DNA of 47,735 nucleotides from contig JBNPEG010000154.1 of NCBI GenBank assembly GCA_051117555.1, forward strand, positions 1 to 47,735, read 5' to 3'. The notes below the pieces were generated by a model. That model did no database searches, was not told the DNA's origin, and saw nothing but the letters and a program-made list of their open reading frames with translations. This document shows, piece after piece, positions 36,969 to 46,324 of this stretch. This stretch comes from Elainellaceae cyanobacterium (GTDB lineage Bacteria > Cyanobacteriota > Cyanobacteriia > CAZCXK01). Every line of letters begins with the position of its first letter. The stretch's first letter is position 1. Made by a program: the position numbers and the translations under genes.

Positions 36969-37173
36969 CTGATTGACTGACAAAAGATCAGAGGCTGGCG
37001 GTTGAAACCGCGCCTACACAACCAAAATCGACCTATAGCCTTCGGCATGGCTTCGCTAGCGTCGACTGTTCTCAACCCGCCTAGGCGGGTTTCGACGTAT
37101 AGCAGCAGTTACTCTGCGAGCAGCCGCTATGCGTCTACAACTGCCGCAAACCAAAGTTTTGTCAGTCAATCAG
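36969..37173. mobile_element. 205-bp MITE with perfect 17-bp terminal inverted repeats, nested in another repeat (36949-37221)
   Basis: CTGATTGACTGACAAAA (36969-36985) and TTTTGTCAGTCAATCAG (37157-37173); flanks CGGGCTCACC and CGGGCTTGCC look like a 10-bp target duplication (8/10). Confidence 0.8.
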
Positions 37174-37421: not shown

Positions 37422-39506
37422 ATGTCTAACTCTCGCCAATCGCCACGTCATCTGACCGCGCCAACTGCTCCTAAACAGCCTAAAATTTTTGAAACTCATG
37501 GCGATCGCACCATTGATGACTATTACTGGATGCGCGATCGCGACAATCCGTCAGTGCTTGAATATCTCAAAGCCGAGAATGCCTACACGGCCTCTCGGAT
37601 GCAACATACCGAAATGCTGCAAGAGCAGCTTTATGAAGAGATGTTGGGGCGTATTCAGGAAACAGATTTATCAGTCCCCTATCGCCATGGTGATTATTTT
37701 TACTACAGCCGCACTGAGGAAGGCAAAGCTTACGGGATTTTCTGCCGAAAATTGAGGAGTTTAGATGCCGATGAGGAAATCCTACTAGACAGCAATCAAC
37801 TTGCTGACGGCGAAGAGTTCTTTAGTTTGGGTGACGTTGAGGTTAGTCCTGATCATCAGCGATTGGCCTATTCTACAGACACTAACGGGTCAGAGAGATA
37901 TACCCTCGTTTTTAAAGATCTTAAAACCGGAGAGCATTTTTCAGAACGCATTGCCGACGTCAGTGGTGTGGTATGGGCAAATGATAACCAGACGCTCTTT
38001 TATCTGCGAATTGATGCAGCAAACCGCCCTTTTCAACTCTGGCGACATCGATTAGACACTGATCCCAGCCATGACACGCTGATCTACGAAGAACCGGATG
38101 AGGGGTTTTATCTCGATATTAGCCGGAGTCGTAGCAATGCGTATCTGTTTTTATCGGCAGACAGTAAAATTACGTCTGAAGTTAGGGTTTTAGATGCAAA
38201 TCAGCCAGAGGGTGAATTGCAAATAATTCAGCCTCGCCAGTATGGAATTGAATATTCTGTCGACCATCATCCAGGGCTAGATGATTCGTCAACTAATCGG
38301 TTTTATATCGTCACGAATGAAGATGCCATTAATTTTAAGCTAATGGTAGCGCCCGTTTCGGCGCTGGGCAAAGACAACTGGGAGACAGTCATCCCTCATC
38401 GAGAGGACGTCATGCTCAACGGGGTCGGAGTCTTTGCCAATCATTTGGCGATTCATGAGCGAGAAAAAGGGCTGCCAATCCTCCGCATCCAAGCGCTTTC
38501 AAGCGGAGAAATCACAACCATCGATTTTCCAGAACCTGCCTACGAGGTATATCCGGGGTTTATGCCGGAGTTTGATACTCGGATGCTGCGGTTTACCTAC
38601 AGTTCACTAACAACCCCCTCGTCTGTGTTTGACTACAACATGGACACTCACGAACGGGAGTTGAAGAAGGAAACTCCCGTGTTGGGAGGATATGACCGCA
38701 CTCACTATGCGAGTGAGCGGCTGATGGCGATCGCTCAAGATGGGGCGCAAGTGCCTATTTCTCTCGTTTACAAAAAAGGCGTGAAGCAGAATGGTGATAA
38801 TCCTCTGTTCTTAGTGGGGTATGGTTCCTATGGGTATCCCTATCCAGCAACGTTTTCATCAAATCGGCTTTCATTGCTGGATCGAGGGGTTGTTTGTGCG
38901 ATCGCCCATATTCGTGGCGGCGGGGAAATGGGGCGCAAATGGTATGAAGGCGGCAAGTTTCTTCACAAGCGAAACACATTTACTGATTTCATTGCCTGTG
39001 CTGAATATCTGATTAAGCAGGGTTGGACGAGTTCAAACCGTCTCGTCATTTCGGGTGGAAGCGCCGGAGGGCTGTTGATTGGGGCAGTGCTCAACATGCG
39101 TTCCGATCTGTTTCAAGGGGCGATCGCCGATGTGCCGTTTGTGGATGTGGTGACGACGATTCTCGACCCGACGCTGCCATTGTCGGTGATGGAATGGGAT
39201 GAATGGGGCAACCCCAATGACAAAGTCTATTACGACTACATGAAGTCGTATTCGCCCTATGACAACGTGAGGGCTCAAGACTATCCTCATCTGCTGATTA
39301 CCGCAGGCTTGAATGACCCCAGAGTGTCGTATTGGGAGCCTGCAAAGTGGGCTGCAAAGCTGCGTGACCTCAAAACTGACCAGAATCGCCTGCTGCTGAA
39401 AACTAATCTAGATGCAGGGCACGCTGGCGCGTCTGGACGGTATGGTCGGCTGAAGGAAATTGCGTTTAGGTATGCATTTGCTTTGGATTGTTTAGGACTT
39501 GCCTAA
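37422..39506 (+). CDS. ptrB: Oligopeptidase B (S9A)
   Basis: DDYYWMRD, GYGSYG, HIRGGGE, GGSAGG nucleophile, NDPRV and AGH motifs. Confidence 0.93.
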   Translation: MSNSRQSPRHLTAPTAPKQPKIFETHGDRTIDDYYWMRDRDNPSVLEYLKAENAYTASRMQHTEMLQEQLYEEMLGRIQETDLSVPYRHGDYFYYSRTEEGKAYGIFCRKLRSLDADEEILLDSNQLADGEEFFSLGDVEVSPDHQRLAYSTDTNGSERYTLVFKDLKTGEHFSERIADVSGVVWANDNQTLFYLRIDAANRPFQLWRHRLDTDPSHDTLIYEEPDEGFYLDISRSRSNAYLFLSADSKITSEVRVLDANQPEGELQIIQPRQYGIEYSVDHHPGLDDSSTNRFYIVTNEDAINFKLMVAPVSALGKDNWETVIPHREDVMLNGVGVFANHLAIHEREKGLPILRIQALSSGEITTIDFPEPAYEVYPGFMPEFDTRMLRFTYSSLTTPSSVFDYNMDTHERELKKETPVLGGYDRTHYASERLMAIAQDGAQVPISLVYKKGVKQNGDNPLFLVGYGSYGYPYPATFSSNRLSLLDRGVVCAIAHIRGGGEMGRKWYEGGKFLHKRNTFTDFIACAEYLIKQGWTSSNRLVISGGSAGGLLIGAVLNMRSDLFQGAIADVPFVDVVTTILDPTLPLSVMEWDEWGNPNDKVYYDYMKSYSPYDNVRAQDYPHLLITAGLNDPRVSYWEPAKWAAKLRDLKTDQNRLLLKTNLDAGHAGASGRYGRLKEIAFRYAFALDCLGLA

Positions 39507-39555
39507 AAACGATTTCGGGAGGTAACTCACGTAGATATTCTCCGAGTAGACATTC

Positions 39556-40515
39556 ATGCCTATGGTTCGTGTTAGAGCACCAGACCTTCCTCAGACTGGC
39601 TCTTGGTTGAATTGTGATCAATCTGTATCGTTGAAAGATCTGCGGGGATACGTCGTTATTCTCGATTTTTGGACGTATAGCTGTATTAACTGCCTGCACG
39701 TTATTCCGGATGTCAGGTATTTAGAACACAAGTATGGCGATCGCCTGGTTGTCATCGGCATTCACACCGCCAAATTTGACCATGAGCACACTCTAGAGAG
39801 TGTTCGGCAGGCAATTGCCCGGCATGGAATTATGCATCCCGATGGTGGCAGAGCACTCGATGTTGATCTAAATTCCCCGTGGGATTTGGTAATAGTAGAT
39901 GCAATGATTTATGTCGCAATGGCAGGAGCGCATCAAATCTGGGCAATTGACCGTGACGGCACGAGTCAAACATTGATTGGCACAGGAGCAGAATTTTGCG
40001 TTAATGGAACACGTGATACTGCTGCATTTGCTCAACCAAGCGGGACTACTACTGATGGAGATGACCTGTTTGTAGTAGATAGTGAAACAAGTTCAGTTCG
40101 CCGAATTAAACGAGGAGAAAGTCCGACTGCTCACACGGTCTGCGGCAGTGGTCAGCTATTTGAGTTTGGCGATCGCGATGGGATTGGATCACATGTGCGC
40201 TTACAACACTGCTTGGGACTGGCCTATGGGGCAGGTTACCTGTGGCTTGCCGATACCTACAACCACAAAATTAAACGAGTGCATCCGGTAACGGGAGACT
40301 GCCAGACTCTATGCGGGATGAGCAAAGCAGGCTTTCGAGACGGCATCGGTCTAGATGCTGCTTTTTCAGAACCCTCTGGATTAAGCTACGCCGACCATCA
40401 TCTGTATGTTGCAGATACCAATAATCATGCCATTCGAATGATTGATCTTGATACGTTGAAGGTGACAACGCTGCACAGTCCGACCCTGTGTTCACCCTAT
40501 GTCTGCCAGCCTTGA
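39556..40515 (+). pseudogene. Thioredoxin-like + NHL-repeat protein with an apparent in-frame internal deletion
   Basis: DFWTYSCINC thioredoxin start; the domain stops at IMHP and jumps directly to LNSPWDL NHL blades. Confidence 0.65.
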
Positions 40516-40572
40516 GCGATTAGTGCCTCTGCAATCTACCCCTCTACTCTACTTTTCTCTCTCTTGCGCGAA

Positions 40573-40718
40573 GCGGCAATTGAAATTGCGTCTACACGAA
40601 CGAAACCCGCCTGCGCGGGTTAAGGAAATTGTCTGTGAGGATGGACATAGTCTATGTAGCCGCCGATTTTAATCGGACGGCACAAGCGAATGTTCTGGGT
40701 CTGATGGCGATCGCCCCA
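40573..40718 (+). repeat. 146-bp direct repeat, left copy
   Basis: Identical to 45265-45410; contains the hairpin AACCCGC...GCGGGTT and ends just after a HIP1 site. Confidence 0.95.
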
Positions 40719-40957
40719 AATATTACCCTCGATCACGGTTGCACTCCTTGTGAACCTAGATCCTTCATCCCCAACGCAAGATAGGAATGTGAGAACACAA
40801 TAAAATAGTATCGCGGTTTTAACCGCCAGCATTCAGAGTCTGGTCAGACAGGGGATATGCACAGGTTAAGGATATCTAAATTTTTTTTGGACTGGACAAC
40901 AATTTAGGAGTTCTTGATTTACCCTGGGGTAAAGAAATTAGTGAACCCAAGAGTTTT

Positions 40958-41293
40958 ATGTCAGACGAATATATTTGGATTGTGACCGATGACGCTGAAC
41001 CTTCTGATATCGAAGGTCAGCGGGGCTGGGGAGAGGAGGTTCGCAAGCGGCTGAATACGGCAGTGCAAGTTCCAGTTTCTCTGCTAGAGCAAAACATGAA
41101 CCGCTTTTTGCAGTTTGTCGGGCGACTGTTTAAGCAGGTTGATCAGCAAATCGGTGCTGATTCAGATATGCAACTAGATGAGGTGGAATTGTCGGTCGAA
41201 ATTAGCGGCAAGGGTGAAATTAAGCTGATTGCTGGTGCAGAAGGGAAAGGAGCGATTACTCTAAAGTTTAAGCGTATCGAAACGTCAGCGTAG
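40958..41293 (+). CDS. Pepco-like (peptidase co-occurring) small protein
   Basis: LDEVELSVEISGKGEIKLI...GAITLKFKR pattern; stop codon is 3 bp before the caspase gene. Family assignment is from recall. Confidence 0.7.
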   Translation: MSDEYIWIVTDDAEPSDIEGQRGWGEEVRKRLNTAVQVPVSLLEQNMNRFLQFVGRLFKQVDQQIGADSDMQLDEVELSVEISGKGEIKLIAGAEGKGAITLKFKRIETSA

Positions 41294-41296
41294 GAA

Positions 41297-43264
41297 ATGG
41301 CACAAAACTGGGCGATCGCCATCGGCATTAATCAATATGAGCATCTTTCGCAGTCGTCACATCTAAGATATGCCGTGCGTGATGCAGAGCTGATGCGTGA
41401 TTTTTTGTGTCAGACTGCTAGCTTTCCTGAGAAGAATGTGTTGTTGTGTTCTGATGAGTCTCGCCCTATCGGGTCTATTTTCACCCGCCCGTCACGGTCA
41501 AATTTAAGGCGGTTATTGCGCGAAGAACTGCAGCAGGCGCACGGAGCTGACAATCTTTGGTTCTTCTTTGCCGGACATGGCATGGCAGGACGAAATGGCG
41601 ATTACTTCTTGCCGATAGATGGCAATCCCAATGATTTGGAAGATACGGCTGTTTCTGTCGATTTTGTGACCGAGTATTTGCGCCGCTGTCAGGCCAAAAA
41701 TGTGGTGCTGATTCTTGATATGTGTCGCAATGAAGGTAGAAATGATAGTCGAGATATCAGCGTTAGTGTAGGTAAGCAAACCATCAAATTGGCCCGCGAG
41801 CGGGGCATGATTACGATGTTTTCCTGTAGCCGAGGGGAGCGATCGTATGAGATTCCTGAGCTAGAGCAAGGGGCGTTTACCCACAGCTTGGTAAATGGGC
41901 TAAAGCAGCACACGATTTTGCGACAGCTCGATGACTATTTGAGGCGAGAGATTCCAGGCTTACGGCAACGCTATGCCAAACAAATCCCGATTCCGCGAAT
42001 TATTCCTGAACCGGGATGGAAATATGATGCGCCTCTGCTGCCTGGATATGCTACCCAATCAGACGTAGGGCAGTTGATTGAGCGAGCAACCCAAGCAGAA
42101 CTCGACGAAGACTTTGAACAAGCCCGTCAGTTTTGGTGGCAGGTGATTGATGCAGGGTCTCAGTCTGAGCGGTCAACAGCCCGGAATGCACTAGATCGAA
42201 TTAGAAGGAAGGAGATGGCGAGGATTCAATCCGTGCCGTCTGCATCGCCACCACCATCAGTTTCTCCTGTCGGAAGGGATATAGGCGAAACCATATCGCC
42301 ACCCAATCCCCAACCTGAAGAAAAAACTACCAACCCAACAGCAACAGACCCGTTTCGTTTGCAAGATTTTCCTTTTAAGACTGCACGAATTGTATCTGTG
42401 CGCAAAGAGGGAGGATTGCTGGGTTTTGGTGGGCAAGCGGTGTGTGACATAAAGCGAGAAGGCTGCACTGCTAAATGCTTTGTTGAGCCGTTGGGCAATG
42501 GTGTCACGCTAGAGATGGTGCAGATTCCAGGAGGCACATTCATGATGGGGTCTCCTGAATCTGAAGATGGATATAAAAGTGAACGACCTCAGCATTCAGT
42601 AACGGTCAAACCATTTTTCATAGGTAAGTTTCCTATTACACAAGCACAGTATGAAGCAGTGATGGGAAACAATCCTGTGACGCAATATGATAGTGACCGC
42701 TTTGTTGCGCCTGATAAGCCCGTCGTTGGCGTGAGTTGGAATGATGCGATCGCCTTTTGTGAACGCCTGTCTCAACAAACTAAAACCGAGTATCGTTTGC
42801 CGAGCGAAGCCGAATGGGAATATGCCTGTCGTGCTGGAAATGAAACGCCGTTTCATTTTGGTGAAACAATCACGACTGACCTAGCAAATTATCGAGGAAC
42901 GGATTGGGAATATCAGGGGACAACGTATCCTGGCAATTATGCAAATGGGCCGAAAGGAGAATATCGAGAAGAGCCAACGCCAGTCGGTAGTTTTGCTGCT
43001 AATGCGTTTGGGCTGTTTGATATGCATGGCAATGTGTGGGAATGGTGCCTTGATCATTGGCATGAAAATTATCAAGATGCACCCACAGATGGAAATGCTT
43101 GGATCGAAGGCGGAGATAAGTCTCTGAGGCTGCTGCGGGGCGGTTCTTGGCCCTACGACCCGTGGGACTGTCGCTCAGCGGACCGTGTCAGGCTCAATGC
43201 AGACTTTAGGAGCGACGACTTCGGGTTTCGTGTTGTGTGTTCTGTGCCGAGGTCTCTTCCCTAG
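41297..43264 (+). CDS. DGR target protein: caspase (peptidase C14) domain, Pro-rich linker and FGE-sulfatase/CLec domain with C-terminal VR
   Basis: AIAIGINQY, FFFAGHG and LILDMCRN (His-Cys dyad); then IPGGTFMMGS, RLPSEAEWEYACRAG, GLFDMHGNVWEW and RGGSW...GFRVV. Confidence 0.95.
   Translation: MAQNWAIAIGINQYEHLSQSSHLRYAVRDAELMRDFLCQTASFPEKNVLLCSDESRPIGSIFTRPSRSNLRRLLREELQQAHGADNLWFFFAGHGMAGRNGDYFLPIDGNPNDLEDTAVSVDFVTEYLRRCQAKNVVLILDMCRNEGRNDSRDISVSVGKQTIKLARERGMITMFSCSRGERSYEIPELEQGAFTHSLVNGLKQHTILRQLDDYLRREIPGLRQRYAKQIPIPRIIPEPGWKYDAPLLPGYATQSDVGQLIERATQAELDEDFEQARQFWWQVIDAGSQSERSTARNALDRIRRKEMARIQSVPSASPPPSVSPVGRDIGETISPPNPQPEEKTTNPTATDPFRLQDFPFKTARIVSVRKEGGLLGFGGQAVCDIKREGCTAKCFVEPLGNGVTLEMVQIPGGTFMMGSPESEDGYKSERPQHSVTVKPFFIGKFPITQAQYEAVMGNNPVTQYDSDRFVAPDKPVVGVSWNDAIAFCERLSQQTKTEYRLPSEAEWEYACRAGNETPFHFGETITTDLANYRGTDWEYQGTTYPGNYANGPKGEYREEPTPVGSFAANAFGLFDMHGNVWEWCLDHWHENYQDAPTDGNAWIEGGDKSLRLLRGGSWPYDPWDCRSADRVRLNADFRSDDFGFRVVCSVPRSLP
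43129..43251 (+). repeat. DGR variable region (VR)
   Basis: Aligns without gaps to 44934-45056 with 18 mismatches, every one opposite a TR adenine. Confidence 0.97.
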
Positions 43265-43333
43265 CCCTTTTCTCTTTTGCTCTTTTACTCTTTACCCTTC
43301 TTTTCTCTTGCGCGTAGCGCTAAAAATTTTTTT
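43265..43333 (+). promoter_or_regulatory. Post-VR pyrimidine tract and GCGC-GTA-GCGC mini-hairpin, candidate retrohoming cis element
   Basis: C/T-rich tract, then CTCTTGCGCGTAGCGCTAAAAATTTTTTT. DGR targets typically have a hairpin downstream of the VR. Confidence 0.55.
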
Positions 43334-43451
43334 GCCTTTAAGAGACATAACGTAACGGTTTGCTTTGATCAGGCTCAAAATGTTCAGTCGCGATGAGATA
43401 TTGGTTCTTATATCCGTTCAACACCAAATCATCTAAAAACATCATTACGTT

Positions 43452-43796
43452 ATGGACGATTTACCTGTTATCCAGAAAACCTATGACCTGATCAAGTGGT
43501 ACGTCCCCATTCTCAACCGATTGCCCAAAAACCACAAGTTTTTGTTAGGCGACAGAATGGTGACCGGGCTCTATGATTTGCTCGAAGGGTTGATTCAAGC
43601 TCGCTATTCTCAAAACAAACTGACTCGACTAGAAACCCTCAACAGCCACCTTGATATCTTACGCCATCAAACTCGCCTGCTTCTCGATTTTGAATTAATA
43701 AAACCAGAGCGATATCAGCACATTGGGCAACTCATAGACTCCGTTGGCACTGATTTGGGGGGCTGGATTAAACAACAGCGTAAAAAACCATATTAA
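43452..43796 (+). CDS. avd: DGR accessory variability determinant Avd
   Basis: 114-aa helical protein ([13 protein letters not shown]...[12 protein letters not shown]...LGGWIK) lying between target and RT. Confidence 0.92.
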
Positions 43797-43817
43797 ACAA
43801 CAGCGTAAAAAACCATC

Positions 43818-44876
43818 ATGAAACGCTACGGCAATCTCTGGCCTCAAATCATCGACTTTGAGAATATCTTACTTGCTGCTCGCAACGCTCAAAAAGGTAA
43901 ACGGTTTCGAGACAATGTGCTGGCCTTCAACTACAACCTGGAACATGAACTCAACCAGATTCAACGCCTCCTCCAAACCAAAACCTATCAGCCCGGAGCT
44001 TACCGCACCTTTCAAATTCGAGAACCCAAACCTCGCACAATTTCAGCGGCTCCCTATCGAGATCGAGTAGTGCATCACGCCCTCTGCAACGTGATCATGC
44101 CTATCTTGGAGCGTTCTCTAATTTTCGATACTTATGCAAACCGTTGGGGCTTTGGCACCCACCGCGCCCTTCATCGCTTTACACAATTTGCTCGGTCTAG
44201 TCGATATATTCTTCAGTGCGACATTCGTAAATACTTTCCCAGCATTGATCATGAGATCTTGAAAACCCTGCTACGTTGCAAGATTAAATGCCTGGATACT
44301 CTCTGGCTGATTGACACGATCATCGACAACAGCAACGAACAAGAACCTGTCATTGTTCACTTTCCAGAGGATGAATTACTCACACCACTACAACGCCGCC
44401 GAGGGCTTCCCATTGGCAATCTCACCAGTCAATGCTTTGCCAATATCTATCTCAGCAACTTTGATCACTTCATCAAAGAACAACTCAAGGTCAGCAAATA
44501 TCTACGCTATGTCGATGACTTTGCGCTATTTTCTGACGACCGCATGTTTCTTACTGAAGCAAAAGCCATAATTGAAAACTACTTGGTAGACTTACGTCTC
44601 AAGATTCACCCCGTCAAAAGCCAGCTTTATAAAACAGAAATCGGTGCTAACTTCGTAGGATTTCGCGTGTTTCCAAACCATATTCGAGTTCGAAGTGAGA
44701 ATTTACGACGATCTCGACGACGATTGCGACGATTGAAACATGAGTACAAAATCAATCAGGTTAGCTTTACAACACTGACCCAATCGATCCAGAGCTGGGG
44801 GACACACCTCAAACATGCAGATAGCTGGCGTCTACGCGACGATATTTTTACAACCTTGATTTTTACGAATGCATAA
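43818..44876 (+). CDS. DGR reverse transcriptase
   Basis: [33 protein letters not shown] (DGR-type GxxxSQ) and YVDD; 352 aa with no maturase or endonuclease extension. Confidence 0.96.
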
Positions 44877-44933
44877 CTTTTGCTCTTAATTGGCTATTCT
44901 TCAGCTATTCTTTCGATTGGGACAGGTTGATCT

Positions 44934-45201
44934 GCTGCTGCGGGGCGGTTCTTGGAACAACAACCCGAGGAACTGTCGCTCAGCGAACCGTAACAGGAAC
45001 AATGCAGACAATAGGAACAACAACAACGGGTTTCGTGTTGTGTGTTCTGTGCCGAGTACTCTTCGCCGTCAGAGCTGATGGATGGGAATTCATCAGGAGT
45101 ACATGAAGAGTCCAGACCTGTTCCTGTGAGGGCAGTAACGCCTTCCGAAAATAAACCAGAGCCAGATATCTTGGTAAGTTCGCTGAAGAGTTGTCTGGCT
45201 C
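44934..45201 (+). ncRNA. DGR template repeat (TR, 44934-45056) and structured 3' spacer
   Basis: AAC-rich copy of the VR; downstream stems CTGATG...CATCAG, GAGGGC...GCCTTC and GAGCCAGA...TCTGGCTC. RNA ends are not known. Confidence 0.9.
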
Positions 45202-45264
45202 CATTAAAATATTCCTTATATTCCATCAAAAGCTCAGATCCCAGACTTTTTGATGAAAAAGCCG

Positions 45265-45410
45265 GCGGCAATTGAAATTGCGTCTACACGAACGAAACCC
45301 GCCTGCGCGGGTTAAGGAAATTGTCTGTGAGGATGGACATAGTCTATGTAGCCGCCGATTTTAATCGGACGGCACAAGCGAATGTTCTGGGTCTGATGGC
45401 GATCGCCCCA
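45265..45410 (+). repeat. 146-bp direct repeat, right copy
   Basis: Identical to 40573-40718. Confidence 0.95.
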
Positions 45411-45416
45411 CGTCGA

Positions 45417-45731
45417 ATAGTCATCATTCACGATCCGATGGCAATCATTCACCACCCGATAGTCATCATTCAATGTCTGATAGTCATCATTCAATGTCTG
45501 ATAGTGAATGTTCAATGTCTGATAATGAATGTTCAATGTCTGATAATGAATGTTCAATATCTGATAATGAATGTTCAATATCTGATAATGAATGTTCAAT
45601 GTCTAATGGTGAATGTTCAATGTCTGATAATGAATGTTCAATGTCTGATGGTGAACGTTCAATGTCTAATAGTGAATGTTCAATGTCTGATGGTGAACGT
45701 TCACTATCGGATAGCGATCGTTCACTATCCG
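45417..45731. repeat. 21-bp tandem repeat, 15 units, degenerate at both edges
   Basis: Consensus ATA(A/G)TGAATGTTCAATGTCTG; no unique spacers. Confidence 0.95.
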
Positions 45732-46039
45732 ATGGCCATCATTTCATATTCGAGTAAGAAAATCTTATATTGCGCATGGATTGATCACCATCCAATATCA
45801 AATTTCCACCACCGGATATCAAATGAAGTCGGTCGAATATAAAACCGAGACCAACGAGATTAGAAAATTTAATATCGCCAGGCAAACATTTCAATTCGTT
45901 TGGCAAATCAAGACCAACGGATATGAAATCAAAACCAGCTCACATCAGTTTTCTTAATTCCGGGATGCAACTTGCGCGATCGGCGGATGGAGTGATGGGG
46001 TAATCAAATCATCTCCATCACTCCCAGACTCCATTACTT

Positions 46040-46324
46040 CTAAACGGGCGATCGCCAACGAATCAGATAACTCATCACGTCACCTTGTTCGGGTGTGATG
46101 ATGATGCCCGTTTCAGGTACGTGAAGTAATGGACTCCACAATCGCTGCTCCACATAGCCCAGCACATGTAGATGATGAATAGTGCTTTGCACACCGTTGG
46201 TAGAACCGAGCAGAATATGCCGCAAGGGTTCTCGCTCAGGTTGAGCAGTAGGAGAGACGAGCAATAGCGGACTGTTCGCCTCACCATCAAGGGTAGGCGA
46301 TGAAGTATTAGGTAAGTATGTCAC
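46040..46324 (-). CDS. Conserved cyanobacterial hypothetical protein
   Basis: REPLRHILLGS..GVQSTIHHLHVLGY.E...WSPL pattern; start uncertain (GTG 46324 or TTG 46366). Confidence 0.7.
   Translation of the reverse strand: MTYLPNTSSPTLDGEANSPLLLVSPTAQPEREPLRHILLGSTNGVQSTIHHLHVLGYVEQRLWSPLLHVPETGIIITPEQGDVMSYLIRWRSPV

Follow-up and report, generated by a model that had tools for sequence, protein, structure and literature searches.

Exact 146-nt direct repeats around a DGR cassette in an Elainellaceae cyanobacterium, and a single-repeat empty site in near-identical environmental strains

The window analyzed here (the whole stretch of 47,735 nt, contig JBNPEG010000154.1 of assembly GCA_051117555.1, Elainellaceae cyanobacterium) carries a DGR between two direct repeats, R1 and R2, which raises the question of whether such a cassette can be gained and lost through the repeats that bracket it. 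The first-pass annotation had proposed that the cassette may integrate or excise by recombination at the repeat. The interval and its borders comprise the following features:

40573..40718, + strand: repeat copy R1, 146 nt, 100% the same as R2
40958..41293, + strand: Pepco-domain gene (adaptor of conflict systems; Pfam PF24393, E 1.7e-30)
41297..43264, + strand: DGR target, N-terminal caspase (Peptidase_C14) and C-terminal FGE-sulfatase/CLec (Pfam)
43129-43259, + strand: VR in the target (VR/TR pair)
43452..43796, + strand: Avd, DGR accessory protein (Pfam bAvd; NCBIfam NF033474, 137 bits versus a cut-off of 80)
43818..44876, + strand: DGR reverse transcriptase (RT; Pfam RVT_1)
44934..45064, + strand: TR, 131 nt, 85% identical to VR
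45065..45264, + strand: post-TR region, with a truncated terminator hairpin at its end, abutting R2
45265..45410, + strand: repeat copy R2, 146 nt, 100% the same as R1

The DGR is thus complete, with the Pepco gene, the caspase-CLec target and its VR, Avd, RT and TR. Nineteen of the 20 TR/VR mismatches fall at TR adenines, and the RT shows 64-84% amino acid identity to 160 fetched DGR RT loci. An earlier description of the interval as DGR genes and short spacers only holds for the DGR itself, but the left edge also contains about 70 nt from the tail of a cytochrome P460-type gene, together with the end of a MITE.

According to a repeat search of the window and a script comparison, R1 and R2 lie 4692 nt apart (start to start) and agree at 146 of 146 positions, as previously stated. 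Also as stated, the identity ends at both copies 4 nt beyond a HIP1 site (GCGATCGC; 40707-40714 in R1, 45399-45406 in R2). The bases outside are unlike, with A versus G upstream and AATATT versus CGTCGA downstream. Copying by the DGR's own RT was considered as the origin of the pair and ruled out, as R1 and R2 agree at all 36 adenines. The repeat was compared with the assembly of the source genome (G000; 6.06 Mb, a draft of 256 contigs with 100-N gaps within related repeat arrays) using sensitive BLAST, which returned 67 rows. Among 17 genome matches of the 146-mer, the two at 100% are R1 and R2 themselves, whereas the other 15 are either 79-90% identical over most of the unit described below or short exact pieces (22-28 nt). 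The objection that many identical copies exist therefore fails.

The repeat is not a neutral 'att-like' sequence but a composite, in which a REP/REPIN-like unit of about 110 nt is followed by a linker of 23 nt and an extended HIP1 motif of 13 nt:

40573-40682, + strand: REP/REPIN-like unit in R1
40683-40705, + strand: linker in R1, between the unit and the extended HIP1 motif
40706-40718, + strand: extended HIP1 motif GGCGATCGCCCCA in R1, a 13-mer with 156 copies in the genome
36969..37130, - strand: MITE/REP-like superfamily member near 36998, of the same superfamily as the 5' part of the repeat

R1 contains 3-4 hairpins (DNA fold z of -2.0 on the + strand and -3.1 on the - strand). The unit family is small, with 8 further near-full units in the genome; its members are 82-89% identical and without nt 111-146 of the repeat. 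The first 50 nt or so of the unit yield about two dozen matches, mostly to related MITE family members. Hairpins tagged with GTAG/CTAC occur in inverted orientation, the left tag in 7 of 9 units and the right tag in 3 of 9. The resemblance noted earlier between the 5' part of the repeat and the element near 36998 is real, both belonging to one family of hairpin-rich MITE/REP-like elements, and the remark that other dispersed repeats have diverged is true for those compared, namely the REP-like units and an element with a 21-nt array (E2, 69-81%).

An empty site with a single repeat, which the annotation suggested looking for in relatives, was found as an exact allele. In Logan contigs of two soil metagenomes from one study (two samples, depth about 3), position 40572 is joined directly to 45265. 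Record 15 of X3 (496 nt) reads 40460-40572 and then 45265-45458, and record 24 of X4 (288 nt) reads 40465-40572 and then 45265-45444, each with 0 other letters; at the joint of both, 4692 nt are skipped and the shared stretch is 146 nt. To the left of the joint 108-113 nt, and to its right 180-194 nt, match the window with zero mismatches. Each flank is specific to this copy: the left one is unique in G000, and the right one corresponds to this E2 copy, not to its 69-81% paralogues. Depth in X3 and X4 was 0 in 8 of 8 bins from 40904 to 42775 (Pepco gene and N-terminal part of the target), and in both runs 39500-40572 is covered, at 2-4 differences per 106-342 nt. Near-identical environmental strains hold the same site with one repeat and without the cassette. 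When JGI metagenome contigs were scanned for the exact pattern of the left junction, there was no hit, and in the congeners G001 and G002 the contigs break inside the upstream NHL gene, short of the orthologous site. A junction of the circular form (45264, repeat, 40719) was not seen in the Logan contigs, whose k of 31 is too short to reveal one.

These data bear on the possibility that two copies of a dispersed repeat stand beside a resident DGR by chance, with no role in its history. The region is crowded with dispersed repeats, and chance bracketing does occur, since the DGR of another cyanobacterium (L216) is bracketed by a 43-nt exact repeat with at least 42 copies in that genome. However, the 146-mer has no third copy, and the family members are divergent and lack its last 36 nt. 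The empty allele loses exactly the cassette and one repeat, so that the repeat must be the breakpoint in either direction. Chance flanking is largely refuted and extremely improbable.

The empty allele also invites the reading that the chromosome has a single repeat and that the 4.7-kb cassette with its repeat exists as a circle of its own or at another place, threaded through the 146-nt node by the short-read assembler. Such an artefact would fit the single-repeat allele found in nature, the draft state of G000 with its gaps in related repeat arrays, and an exact repeat longer than common k-mer sizes; 'integrated' and 'chromosome plus circle' give the same graph. On the other hand, a stable 4.7-kb replicon is unlikely because no replication or partition gene was found in the cassette (Pfam/NCBIfam), such a node is normally resolved by read pairs or by reads of more than 146 nt, and the adjacency of post-TR region and REP-like unit is independently present at contig C81 and at G002:C40. 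We consider this reading quite unlikely.

A scan of the 47.7-kb contig that took in 43 of its 44 non-nested ORFs with 110 aa or more, along with three shorter ORFs, found no integrase or transposase Pfam family, in agreement with the earlier statement that no integrase gene is nearby; downstream of the cassette the contig comprises 2.3 kb only. No tRNA and no Rfam families over threshold were found. Site-specific integration would need an integrase in trans, with the cassette as a cis-mobilizable element and the two repeats as attL and attR. A small accessory cassette framed by exact direct repeats, together with a one-copy empty site, shows the classical att pattern, and a related DGR (L124, RT with 64% amino acid identity) is a 5.2-kb DGR-only insert between 58-nt exact copies of a tRNA-Asp 3' end, with no integrase among the 8 ORFs tested inside it. 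ICEs that carry DGRs and have att repeats at tRNA-Lys have been described (10.1101/2024.11.15.621889). Against this, the repeat contains no tRNA, tmRNA or known RNA gene, its ends are the edges of resident repeats (unit start, HIP1 end) and not a gene end, and 146 nt of identity is ample for RecA without a site-specific enzyme. An integrase in trans is very unlikely.

With only two copies of the repeat, an empty allele with one, and no integrase or transposase found in the ORFs scanned on the contig, the cassette plus one repeat behaves as a gain/loss unit bounded by the repeat. To this extent the proposal of recombination at the repeat is supported, in part: the 4692-nt segment is probably a strain-level insertion/deletion unit with ends set by the repeat, formed by recombination there. 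The repeat could serve as a recombination substrate because it is made of resident repeated DNA. The mechanism would be general (RecA-type) homologous recombination, for which no element-encoded recombinase would be required. A crossover between the direct repeats would delete the cassette as a 4.7-kb circle with one repeat and leave the chromosome with one repeat; in reverse, the same reaction could bring the cassette into any chromosome with a single-repeat site. Insertion might take the form of a Campbell-type single crossover of the cassette circle, or of 'ends-in' or homology-facilitated integration of taken-up DNA, in which the REP-like unit would be the anchor and the extended HIP1 motif the place of an illegitimate join. 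In Campbell-type integration one stretch of homology is enough, the insert becomes flanked by the duplicated homology, and the reverse crossover restores the single copy; this process and RecA deletion between direct repeats are known mainly from plasmids and laboratory constructs, and homology-facilitated illegitimate recombination occurs in naturally transformable bacteria. Unlike in the Campbell-type cases, one end of the duplicated block here falls at the extended HIP1 motif. A preprint reports that HIP1 increases homologous integration in natural transformation (bioRxiv 10.1101/2024.09.10.611283).

Because the repeat contains a REP/REPIN-like unit, a Y1 (IS200/RAYT-type) transposase acting in trans becomes a rival route. 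On contig C81, tandem arrays of the unit family (period 137-140) lie on both sides of a 164-aa IS200-type Y1_Tnp ORF (PF01797, E 3e-23; NF033573, 74 bits versus a cut-off of 55; HVH and YIRNQ motifs in the sequence), one of five Y1_Tnp loci in the genome. An enzyme from C81 or from one of the four other loci could make a hairpin-guided cut at the same site in both REP-like units on single-stranded DNA, which would free the cassette and one repeat as a single-stranded circle, close the donor again around the other repeat and allow the circle to be pasted elsewhere; the expected products would be no different from what is observed. Yet the identity of R1 and R2 extends 36 nt past the unit, through linker and HIP1, which fits recombination of a duplicated segment and not a unit-guided cut. 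Known Y1 elements pair a left end with a different right end and do not use two left ends. Moreover, a second insertion site of the cassette is not known, G000 yielded no closely related second cassette (66-81% identity between this locus and the other DGR loci of the genome), and no RAYT homologue was found in five stretches of G002 examined. The GTAG/CTAC-tagged inverted hairpins recall REPs and REPtrons, including cyanobacterial ones (PMC3733652), and IS200/IS605 is described as the transposase family commonest near cyanobacterial DGR targets (PMC7517822). On balance, a Y1 route is unlikely, and recombination at the repeat is preferred.

Regarding the direction of the change, the edges of the cassette and its flanks are of interest:

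40520..40572, + strand: left flank before R1, homologous to the post-VR spacer (after the stop codon of DGR target genes)
40719..40811, + strand: decayed 3' tail and downstream bases of a cytochrome P460-family gene, about 22 codons, stop at 40785-40787
40806..40852, + strand: right-end fragment of a palindromic MITE family member (TIR CTGATTGACTGACAAAA), with 19-28-nt matches to C1, C44, C111 and C253 (compared with full members by eye)
45398..46056, + strand: dispersed element E2, right flank, with a 21-nt tandem array at 45385-45796

The left flank is 80% identical to the post-VR spacer at G002:C5 over 56 columns (54 nt of G002; window 40520-40575) and shares a 21-nt exact match with that of C180. 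Positions 40741-40811 match G003:C113:1963-2033 (a 71-nt DNA match, 82%, E 3.4e-12), the 3' end of a gene for a 203-aa PF16694 protein. The P460 family is present in 2 of 41 genomes searched (G003 and G028); neither the family nor a full gene copy was found in G000, G001 or G002, and the family profile did not recover the tail from the six-frame translation of the genome at E<=10. No homology was seen at the junction of R1 and cassette (40718|40719). At the other end, post-TR homology with the closest DGRs stops at 45201-45203, and the 37 nt that separate the terminator from the unit at C81 and G002:C40 are absent at the 45264 side of this cassette. Recombination at the repeat does not account for how the first filled allele arose, with its non-homologous 40718|40719 junction and the missing 37 nt, and this weighs against that explanation. 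The first 13 nt of E2 are the last 13 nt of the repeat, and all six copies examined (C178, C16, C192 and C248 of its own genome, G002:C76 and G001:C400) open with the same 13-mer. The values of 69-81% to the four own-genome copies refer to the shared repeat-array part; one copy is 89% identical over a 332-nt downstream stretch. The adjacencies of R2 to its neighbours on both sides, the post-TR region and the 21-nt-array element, are thus known from other loci too.

Gain of the cassette in the source lineage is mildly favoured over loss in the metagenomic strains. The cassette is poor in HIP1 (2 sites in 4546 nt, where the genome averages 6.8; among 2473 windows, only 3.8% contain no more than 2), a stray P460-family gene tail sits at its left end, and this avd/RT was not found at the DNA level in the congeners G002 (99% complete) and G001 (61% complete). 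Deletion, however, would yield the empty allele equally well, and a gained cassette would remain liable to loss through the same recombination.

Repeat bracketing of this kind is not general among related DGR loci: 4 of 90 with enough flank are enclosed by a repeat that is 40 nt or longer and 95% or more identical, none of this kind. At DGR loci of Thiohalocapsa PB-PSB1, structural variation driven by repeats and MITEs has been described, with hairpin-forming MITE-like repeat arrays and coexisting strain variants with and without DGR parts, for which cargo transposition, or homologous recombination of one repeat copy with another, was proposed (PMC10907252). The C81 locus resembles these cases in that avd and RT have been lost there and repeat arrays lie directly beside it. 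The repeats in Thiohalocapsa originate from the terminal inverted repeats of ISs and for the most part degrade DGR parts (PMC10907252), whereas here an exact, unique 146-nt duplication surrounds a DGR that is whole and intact, the other allele is an empty site without remnants of the cassette, and the repeats belong to a family linked with a Y1 transposase. Bacteroides ICEs at tRNA-Lys likewise show direct repeats around a DGR-bearing insert in integrated and empty (scar) forms (10.1101/2024.11.15.621889), but these are described as tens of kb long with their own integrase and transfer genes, in contrast to 4.7 kb with no mobility gene found and a repeat of resident repeated DNA. REPIN-RAYT systems and REPtrons share with C81 a Y1 transposase gene between its own hairpin repeats, GTAG-tagged inverted palindromes, and clustered and dispersed units (PMC3733652, PMC3116915, PMC3337134). 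Unlike those systems as described, the family here is small, with units of about 110 nt and 3-4 hairpins in direct tandem arrays and five Y1_Tnp loci; REPINs, moreover, are not known to carry cargo. The present case is a variant of repeat-driven DGR locus dynamics, distinguished by the exact repeat around a whole DGR and by the clean empty site. If homologous recombination at the repeat is the true mechanism, this would be a natural Campbell-type route for a whole DGR.

The two repeat copies, R1 (window 40573-40718) and R2 (45265-45410), are identical at 146 of 146 nt, lie 4692 nt apart and are flanked by different bases on both sides. Each copy contains a HIP1 site (40707-40714 and 45399-45406), 4 nt after which the identity stops; both the identity and its end at HIP1 are as claimed in the first-pass annotation. 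The window is the entire contig C116 of a draft assembly of 256 contigs (6.06 Mb). A genome-wide count of the 146-mer, proposed at first pass as a check, returned exactly two identical copies, the remaining 15 of the 17 matches being 79-90% identical or short pieces, and a more sensitive BLAST search (67 rows) yielded no further identical copy in the assembly. The reverse transcriptase (RT) of the DGR itself was considered as the copier of the repeat and ruled out, because R1 and R2 differ at 0 of 36 adenines. No Rfam family scored above threshold over the repeat (the best was a 24-nt hairpin resembling CRISPR-DR28, with 31.7 bits against 35), and a tRNA search at the repeat found none.

An empty site with a single repeat, as had been predicted, is present in metagenomes. 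Four metagenome runs, read as Logan contigs, were examined (shares 0.06-0.09; none is the source strain). Contigs from two soil samples of one study (X3 and X4) join 40572 to 45265, a joint that skips 4692 nt and at which the 146 nt fits either side. Record 15 of X3 (496 nt, depth 3.1) covers 40460-40572 and 45265-45458, and record 24 of X4 (288 nt, depth 2.9) covers 40465-40572 and 45265-45444, each with 0 differing letters. These flanks are specific to this locus, since the left one is unique in the draft genome and the right one is this copy of an array element whose paralogues are merely 69-81% identical. X3 and X4 pieces over 39500-40572 show 2-4 differences per 106-342 nt, so that the strain concerned is about 99% identical, and depth is zero in 8 of 8 bins from 40904 to 42775. 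A natural allele consisting of left flank, one repeat and right flank thus exists; coming from a single study, it counts as one independent observation. The two alleles differ by the cassette and a single repeat copy, and the break falls at the repeat; to this extent the earlier reading of integration or excision through the repeat is supported in part.

The other two runs (X1 and X2) hold a related cassette (about 90-93%), X1 also with tandem units of the repeat; the sides of their joints from 41131/41134 to 45264 span just 33-36 nt, and no conclusion is drawn from them. The exact 33-nt left-junction pattern had 0 matches in JGI metagenome contigs. In the two congeners the contigs end within the NHL gene upstream of the cassette (G002:C20 119 nt past window 40115, G001:C190 at about 40229), and the remainder of this gene was not found in either assembly by DNA or protein search. 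In the same thioredoxin-NHL gene, about 546 nt are absent at window 39842-39852 relative to G002:C20:159966-160512, or else G002 gained an NHL repeat block.

The cassette between R1 and R2 comprises the following features:
40958-41293, Pepco-domain gene
41297-43264, target gene with caspase and FGE-sulfatase/CLec domains, variable repeat (VR) at 43129-43259
43452-43796, Avd
43818-44876, RT
44934-45064, template repeat (TR)

The RT is of the DGR clade (RVT_1, E 5e-19) and shares 64-84% amino acid identity with the RTs of 160 fetched loci, several of which are annotated DGRs on plasmids. Avd matches NF033474 with 137 bits (cut-off 80), and the target carries an FGE-sulfatase domain at residues 406-647, with the VR at the 3' end. 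The TR/VR pair measures 131 nt and has 20 mismatches, 19 of which fall at TR adenines, the hallmark of a DGR that is active or was so until recently. At the avd/RT junction (43767-43816), 25 nt are duplicated exactly and in tandem. The duplication is missing in the closest relatives, L061 and L141, where the avd stop overlaps the RT start; with the duplication, both frames stay open here and avd ends in a new stop. An open frame of 125 aa (MEYKEYF from an internal ATG) on the minus strand at 45100-45271 runs antisense through the conserved post-TR region and TR; a similar antisense frame occurs on contig C81. The frame had no match in Pfam, and the conservation of the post-TR region may be at the RNA level (3' part of the DGR RNA) rather than coding.

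The 146-nt repeat is a composite of three parts:
repeat nt 1 to about 110, REP-like unit, member of a hairpin-rich family
repeat nt 111-133, linker, no match elsewhere
repeat nt 134-146, extended HIP1 motif GGCGATCGCCCCA, 156 copies in the genome

Beyond the two repeat copies, eight near-full units (82-89% identical) are known in this genome, confined to tandem arrays with a period of 137-140 on contigs C75 and C81. The C81 arrays flank both sides (two units on one, at least five on the other) of a 164-aa ORF (C81:45250-45744), which matches Y1_Tnp (PF01797, E 3e-23) and the NCBIfam IS200/IS605 transposase model NF033573 (74 bits, cut-off 55) and in which the HVH and YIRNQ motifs are visible. 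Three to four hairpins are predicted per unit, two of them carrying GTAG/CTAC tags in inverted orientation; across nine aligned units the left tag is CTAC in 7/9, and the right tag is GTAG in 3/9 and ATAG in the other six. With an IS200-family Y1 transposase gene flanked by repeat copies, the C81 array resembles REPs adjoining RAYT transposases ('REPtrons'); passages in PMC3733652 describe a tagged-hairpin pattern for these, cyanobacteria included, to which the tags of the present units may correspond. The genome holds five Y1_Tnp loci; no RAYT homologue was seen in five stretches of G002 examined. The unit is also related along its entire length to a palindromic MITE family of about 150 nt with terminal inverted repeats, and the repeat near 36998 to which the 5' part had been likened at first pass proves to be a copy of this family (window about 36969-37130).

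At the other end, the extended HIP1 13-mer is the start of all six examined copies of the 21-nt-array element, including the one after R2. This element (window 45385-46056, with copies on C178, C16, C192 and C248) is about 650 nt long, always begins with the 13-mer and holds a variable array of 21-nt repeats, which also form long imperfect palindromes. Both neighbours of R2 are adjacencies known elsewhere, because the post-TR region followed by the unit recurs at a DGR remnant on C81 and at its orthologue G002:C40, and HIP1 followed by the array element recurs in all examined copies. The R1/cassette junction (40718/40719) is a one-off.

A Y1 transposase acting in trans would be an attractive mover of the cassette because of the REPtron link of the unit and because IS200/IS605 transposases are, according to a part of PMC7517822, those most often found near cyanobacterial DGR targets. 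However, such a transposase leaves the identity over 36 nt beyond the unit unexplained, and no second insertion site of the cassette was found in the draft genome; we consider this route unlikely.

The first-pass annotation had reported no integrase nearby, and Pfam scans of the contig (all but one of the 44 non-nested ORFs with 110 aa or more, plus three shorter ones) agree, having found no integrase, transposase or replication gene; the scanned ORFs are housekeeping and signalling genes and the DGR. Downstream of R2 the contig extends for just 2.3 kb. Direct repeats at both ends and a one-copy empty site are shared with integrative elements, and no cognate tyrosine or serine recombinase was found in the cassette or on the contig. 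The locus does not fit an IS200/IS605 element or a composite transposon: neither the cassette nor its vicinity holds a transposase, both ends are direct copies of one sequence, and there is a single site. An assembly artefact or episome, i.e., a chromosome with a single repeat and a separate cassette circle, would give the same assembly graph as an integrated cassette, and the draft is gapped in related arrays; the cassette, however, is without a replication gene, and we hold this explanation to be decidedly unlikely.

General homologous recombination is the simplest enzyme system for the indel. A perfect direct repeat of 146 nt in copies 4.7 kb apart is an ordinary RecA substrate. Crossover between R1 and R2 would leave one repeat in the chromosome and release a 4.7-kb circle; run backwards, it would integrate such a circle. 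In a variant, taken-up DNA ending in the unit would pair with a resident unit, which fits because this DGR lineage carries the unit after the post-TR region; the other end would be joined illegitimately 36 nt past the unit, directly behind the extended HIP1 motif, and repair on a second copy of the chromosome would then duplicate precisely the unit, linker and HIP1. Uptake of this kind would account for both edges of the duplicated block. HIP1 sites have been reported, in a portion of bioRxiv 10.1101/2024.09.10.611283, to increase homologous integration in natural transformation 'in a manner reminiscent of' Chi, and a role of HIP1 in gene transfer is also argued in part of a 2026 paper.

The cassette may well have been gained in this lineage. 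Window 40741-40811 matches contig C113 of G003, another of the 41 genomes searched (82%, E 3.4e-12), and the matched stretch there is the 3' end of a 203-aa cytochrome P460-family gene (PF16694), from 14 codons before the stop into the sequence behind it. In the window, this tail, read in frame, continues in decayed form as far as the repeat boundary. No P460 gene was found in the draft genome, and a fragment of foreign surroundings therefore seems to have arrived with the cassette. The same query found none in G001 (61% complete) or G002 (99% complete), 2 of the 41 genomes matching overall. HIP1 is scarce in the cassette, whose 4546 nt contain 2 sites where the mean is 6.8; a count of two or fewer occurs in just 3.8% of 2473 genome windows. 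The avd and RT of the window were not found at the DNA level in G001 and G002. The P460 tail, the few HIP1 sites and the absence from the congeners lean to gain. Counting against it, a profile built from 70 P460 family members (those of 74 matches with 180 aa or more) failed to recover the tail, a deletion between R1 and R2 would yield an identical empty allele, and positions 40520-40572, adjoining R1 on the left, are similar to the spacer that follows the VR in DGR targets, which hints at an older DGR-related history at the site. None of the 160 RT loci has P460 beside it.

The 160 related RT loci were surveyed for bracketing direct repeats (at least 40 nt at 95% identity or more). Such repeats were found at 4 of the 90 loci whose flanks reach 2.5 kb or more upstream and 0.8 kb or more downstream, none being of the present kind:
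L124, tRNA-Asp att pair
L216 (815-857 and 5292-5334), abundant exact 43-nt repeat (at least 42 genome copies) bracketing a DGR in a Gomphosphaeria MAG
L177, partial avd duplication
L191, heptamer repeats

Matches to the 146-nt repeat itself occur near 4 of the 160 RT loci and are all short, and in the closest relatives (RT 79-84% amino acid identity) homology stops at window 45201-45203, short of R2. The arrangement is therefore local rather than a trait of the whole clade. L216 serves as a control for chance bracketing, given the copy number of its repeat, and demonstrates that it occurs; here, however, chance flanking of a resident DGR by a dispersed repeat is contradicted by both the uniqueness of the 146-mer and the empty allele, and is extremely improbable.

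In the metagenome contig L124 (1082-6366) a caspase-CLec target, Avd, RT, TR and about 1 kb of non-coding DNA lie between a complete tRNA-Asp and an exact 58-nt copy of its 3' end. None of the 8 ORFs tested between the tRNA-Asp copies is an integrase, and the insert has the appearance of an island without an integrase, placed at the att site of a tRNA. This related, DGR-only insert of 5.2 kb suggests an integrase in trans with R1 and R2 as att sites for the window too, but the repeat here is no gene end, and we regard that explanation as highly improbable. Related DGRs are found on 32 plasmid records (60-90% identity); 9 phage records gave short matches in the CLec domain of the target and were rejected as DGR carriers. 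No close relative of the cassette was found among plasmid and phage records.

Further DGR-type loci are present in the draft genome. The C81 locus (C81:46400-48445; L018 6400-8445, minus strand) is without avd or RT and consists of a TIR and FGE-sulfatase target (443 aa, VR-like end), a post-VR spacer of about 230 nt, a TR-like copy and a post-TR region with the repeat arrays and Y1 transposase gene immediately behind it; in the orthologue on G002:C40, TR and the greater part of the post-TR region are lost as well. Contig C8 carries a complete DGR (C8:4800-7950, L020; target, avd, RT, TR and a second target) that is 66-74% identical in DNA to that of the window, and no unit of the repeat family is present on C8. 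Another Pepco and target pair is located on C180.

The nearest published picture, as far as the consulted portion of PMC10907252 goes, is Thiohalocapsa PB-PSB1, in which MITE-like arrays and transposons reshape DGR loci, long reads reveal variants with and without DGR parts, and homologous recombination between repeats is named as a possible cause. New here in comparison are a clean, base-exact allele pair for a whole intact DGR, the lack of a recombinase, and ends made of a REP-like unit and HIP1. No published description of such an arrangement was found in open-access text. Known DGR vehicles are phages, plasmids, ICEs and transposons. For chromosomal DGRs with bacterial proteins as targets, a passage of 10.1101/2024.11.15.621889 describes mobility as 'relatively unexplored'.

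At this locus a whole, apparently active DGR with a conflict-system partner gene is a 4.7-kb presence/absence unit between strains about 1% apart, bounded by resident repeats and without a recombinase of its own. Its movement is directly testable, because both alleles are natural and the breakpoints are base-exact. The locus ties together REP-like repeats with Y1 transposases, HIP1 and DGR-diversified defence sensors, cyanobacterial features that have mostly been studied separately. Tentatively, the cassette could be a recombinase-free, circularisable DGR module that passes between HIP1-rich cyanobacterial strains when DNA is taken up and recombines, with resident REP-like units and HIP1 motifs as anchors and a Y1 transposase possibly seeding the sites. 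If so, such 'housekeeping' repeats of the genome would act as universal docking sites for accessory cassettes.
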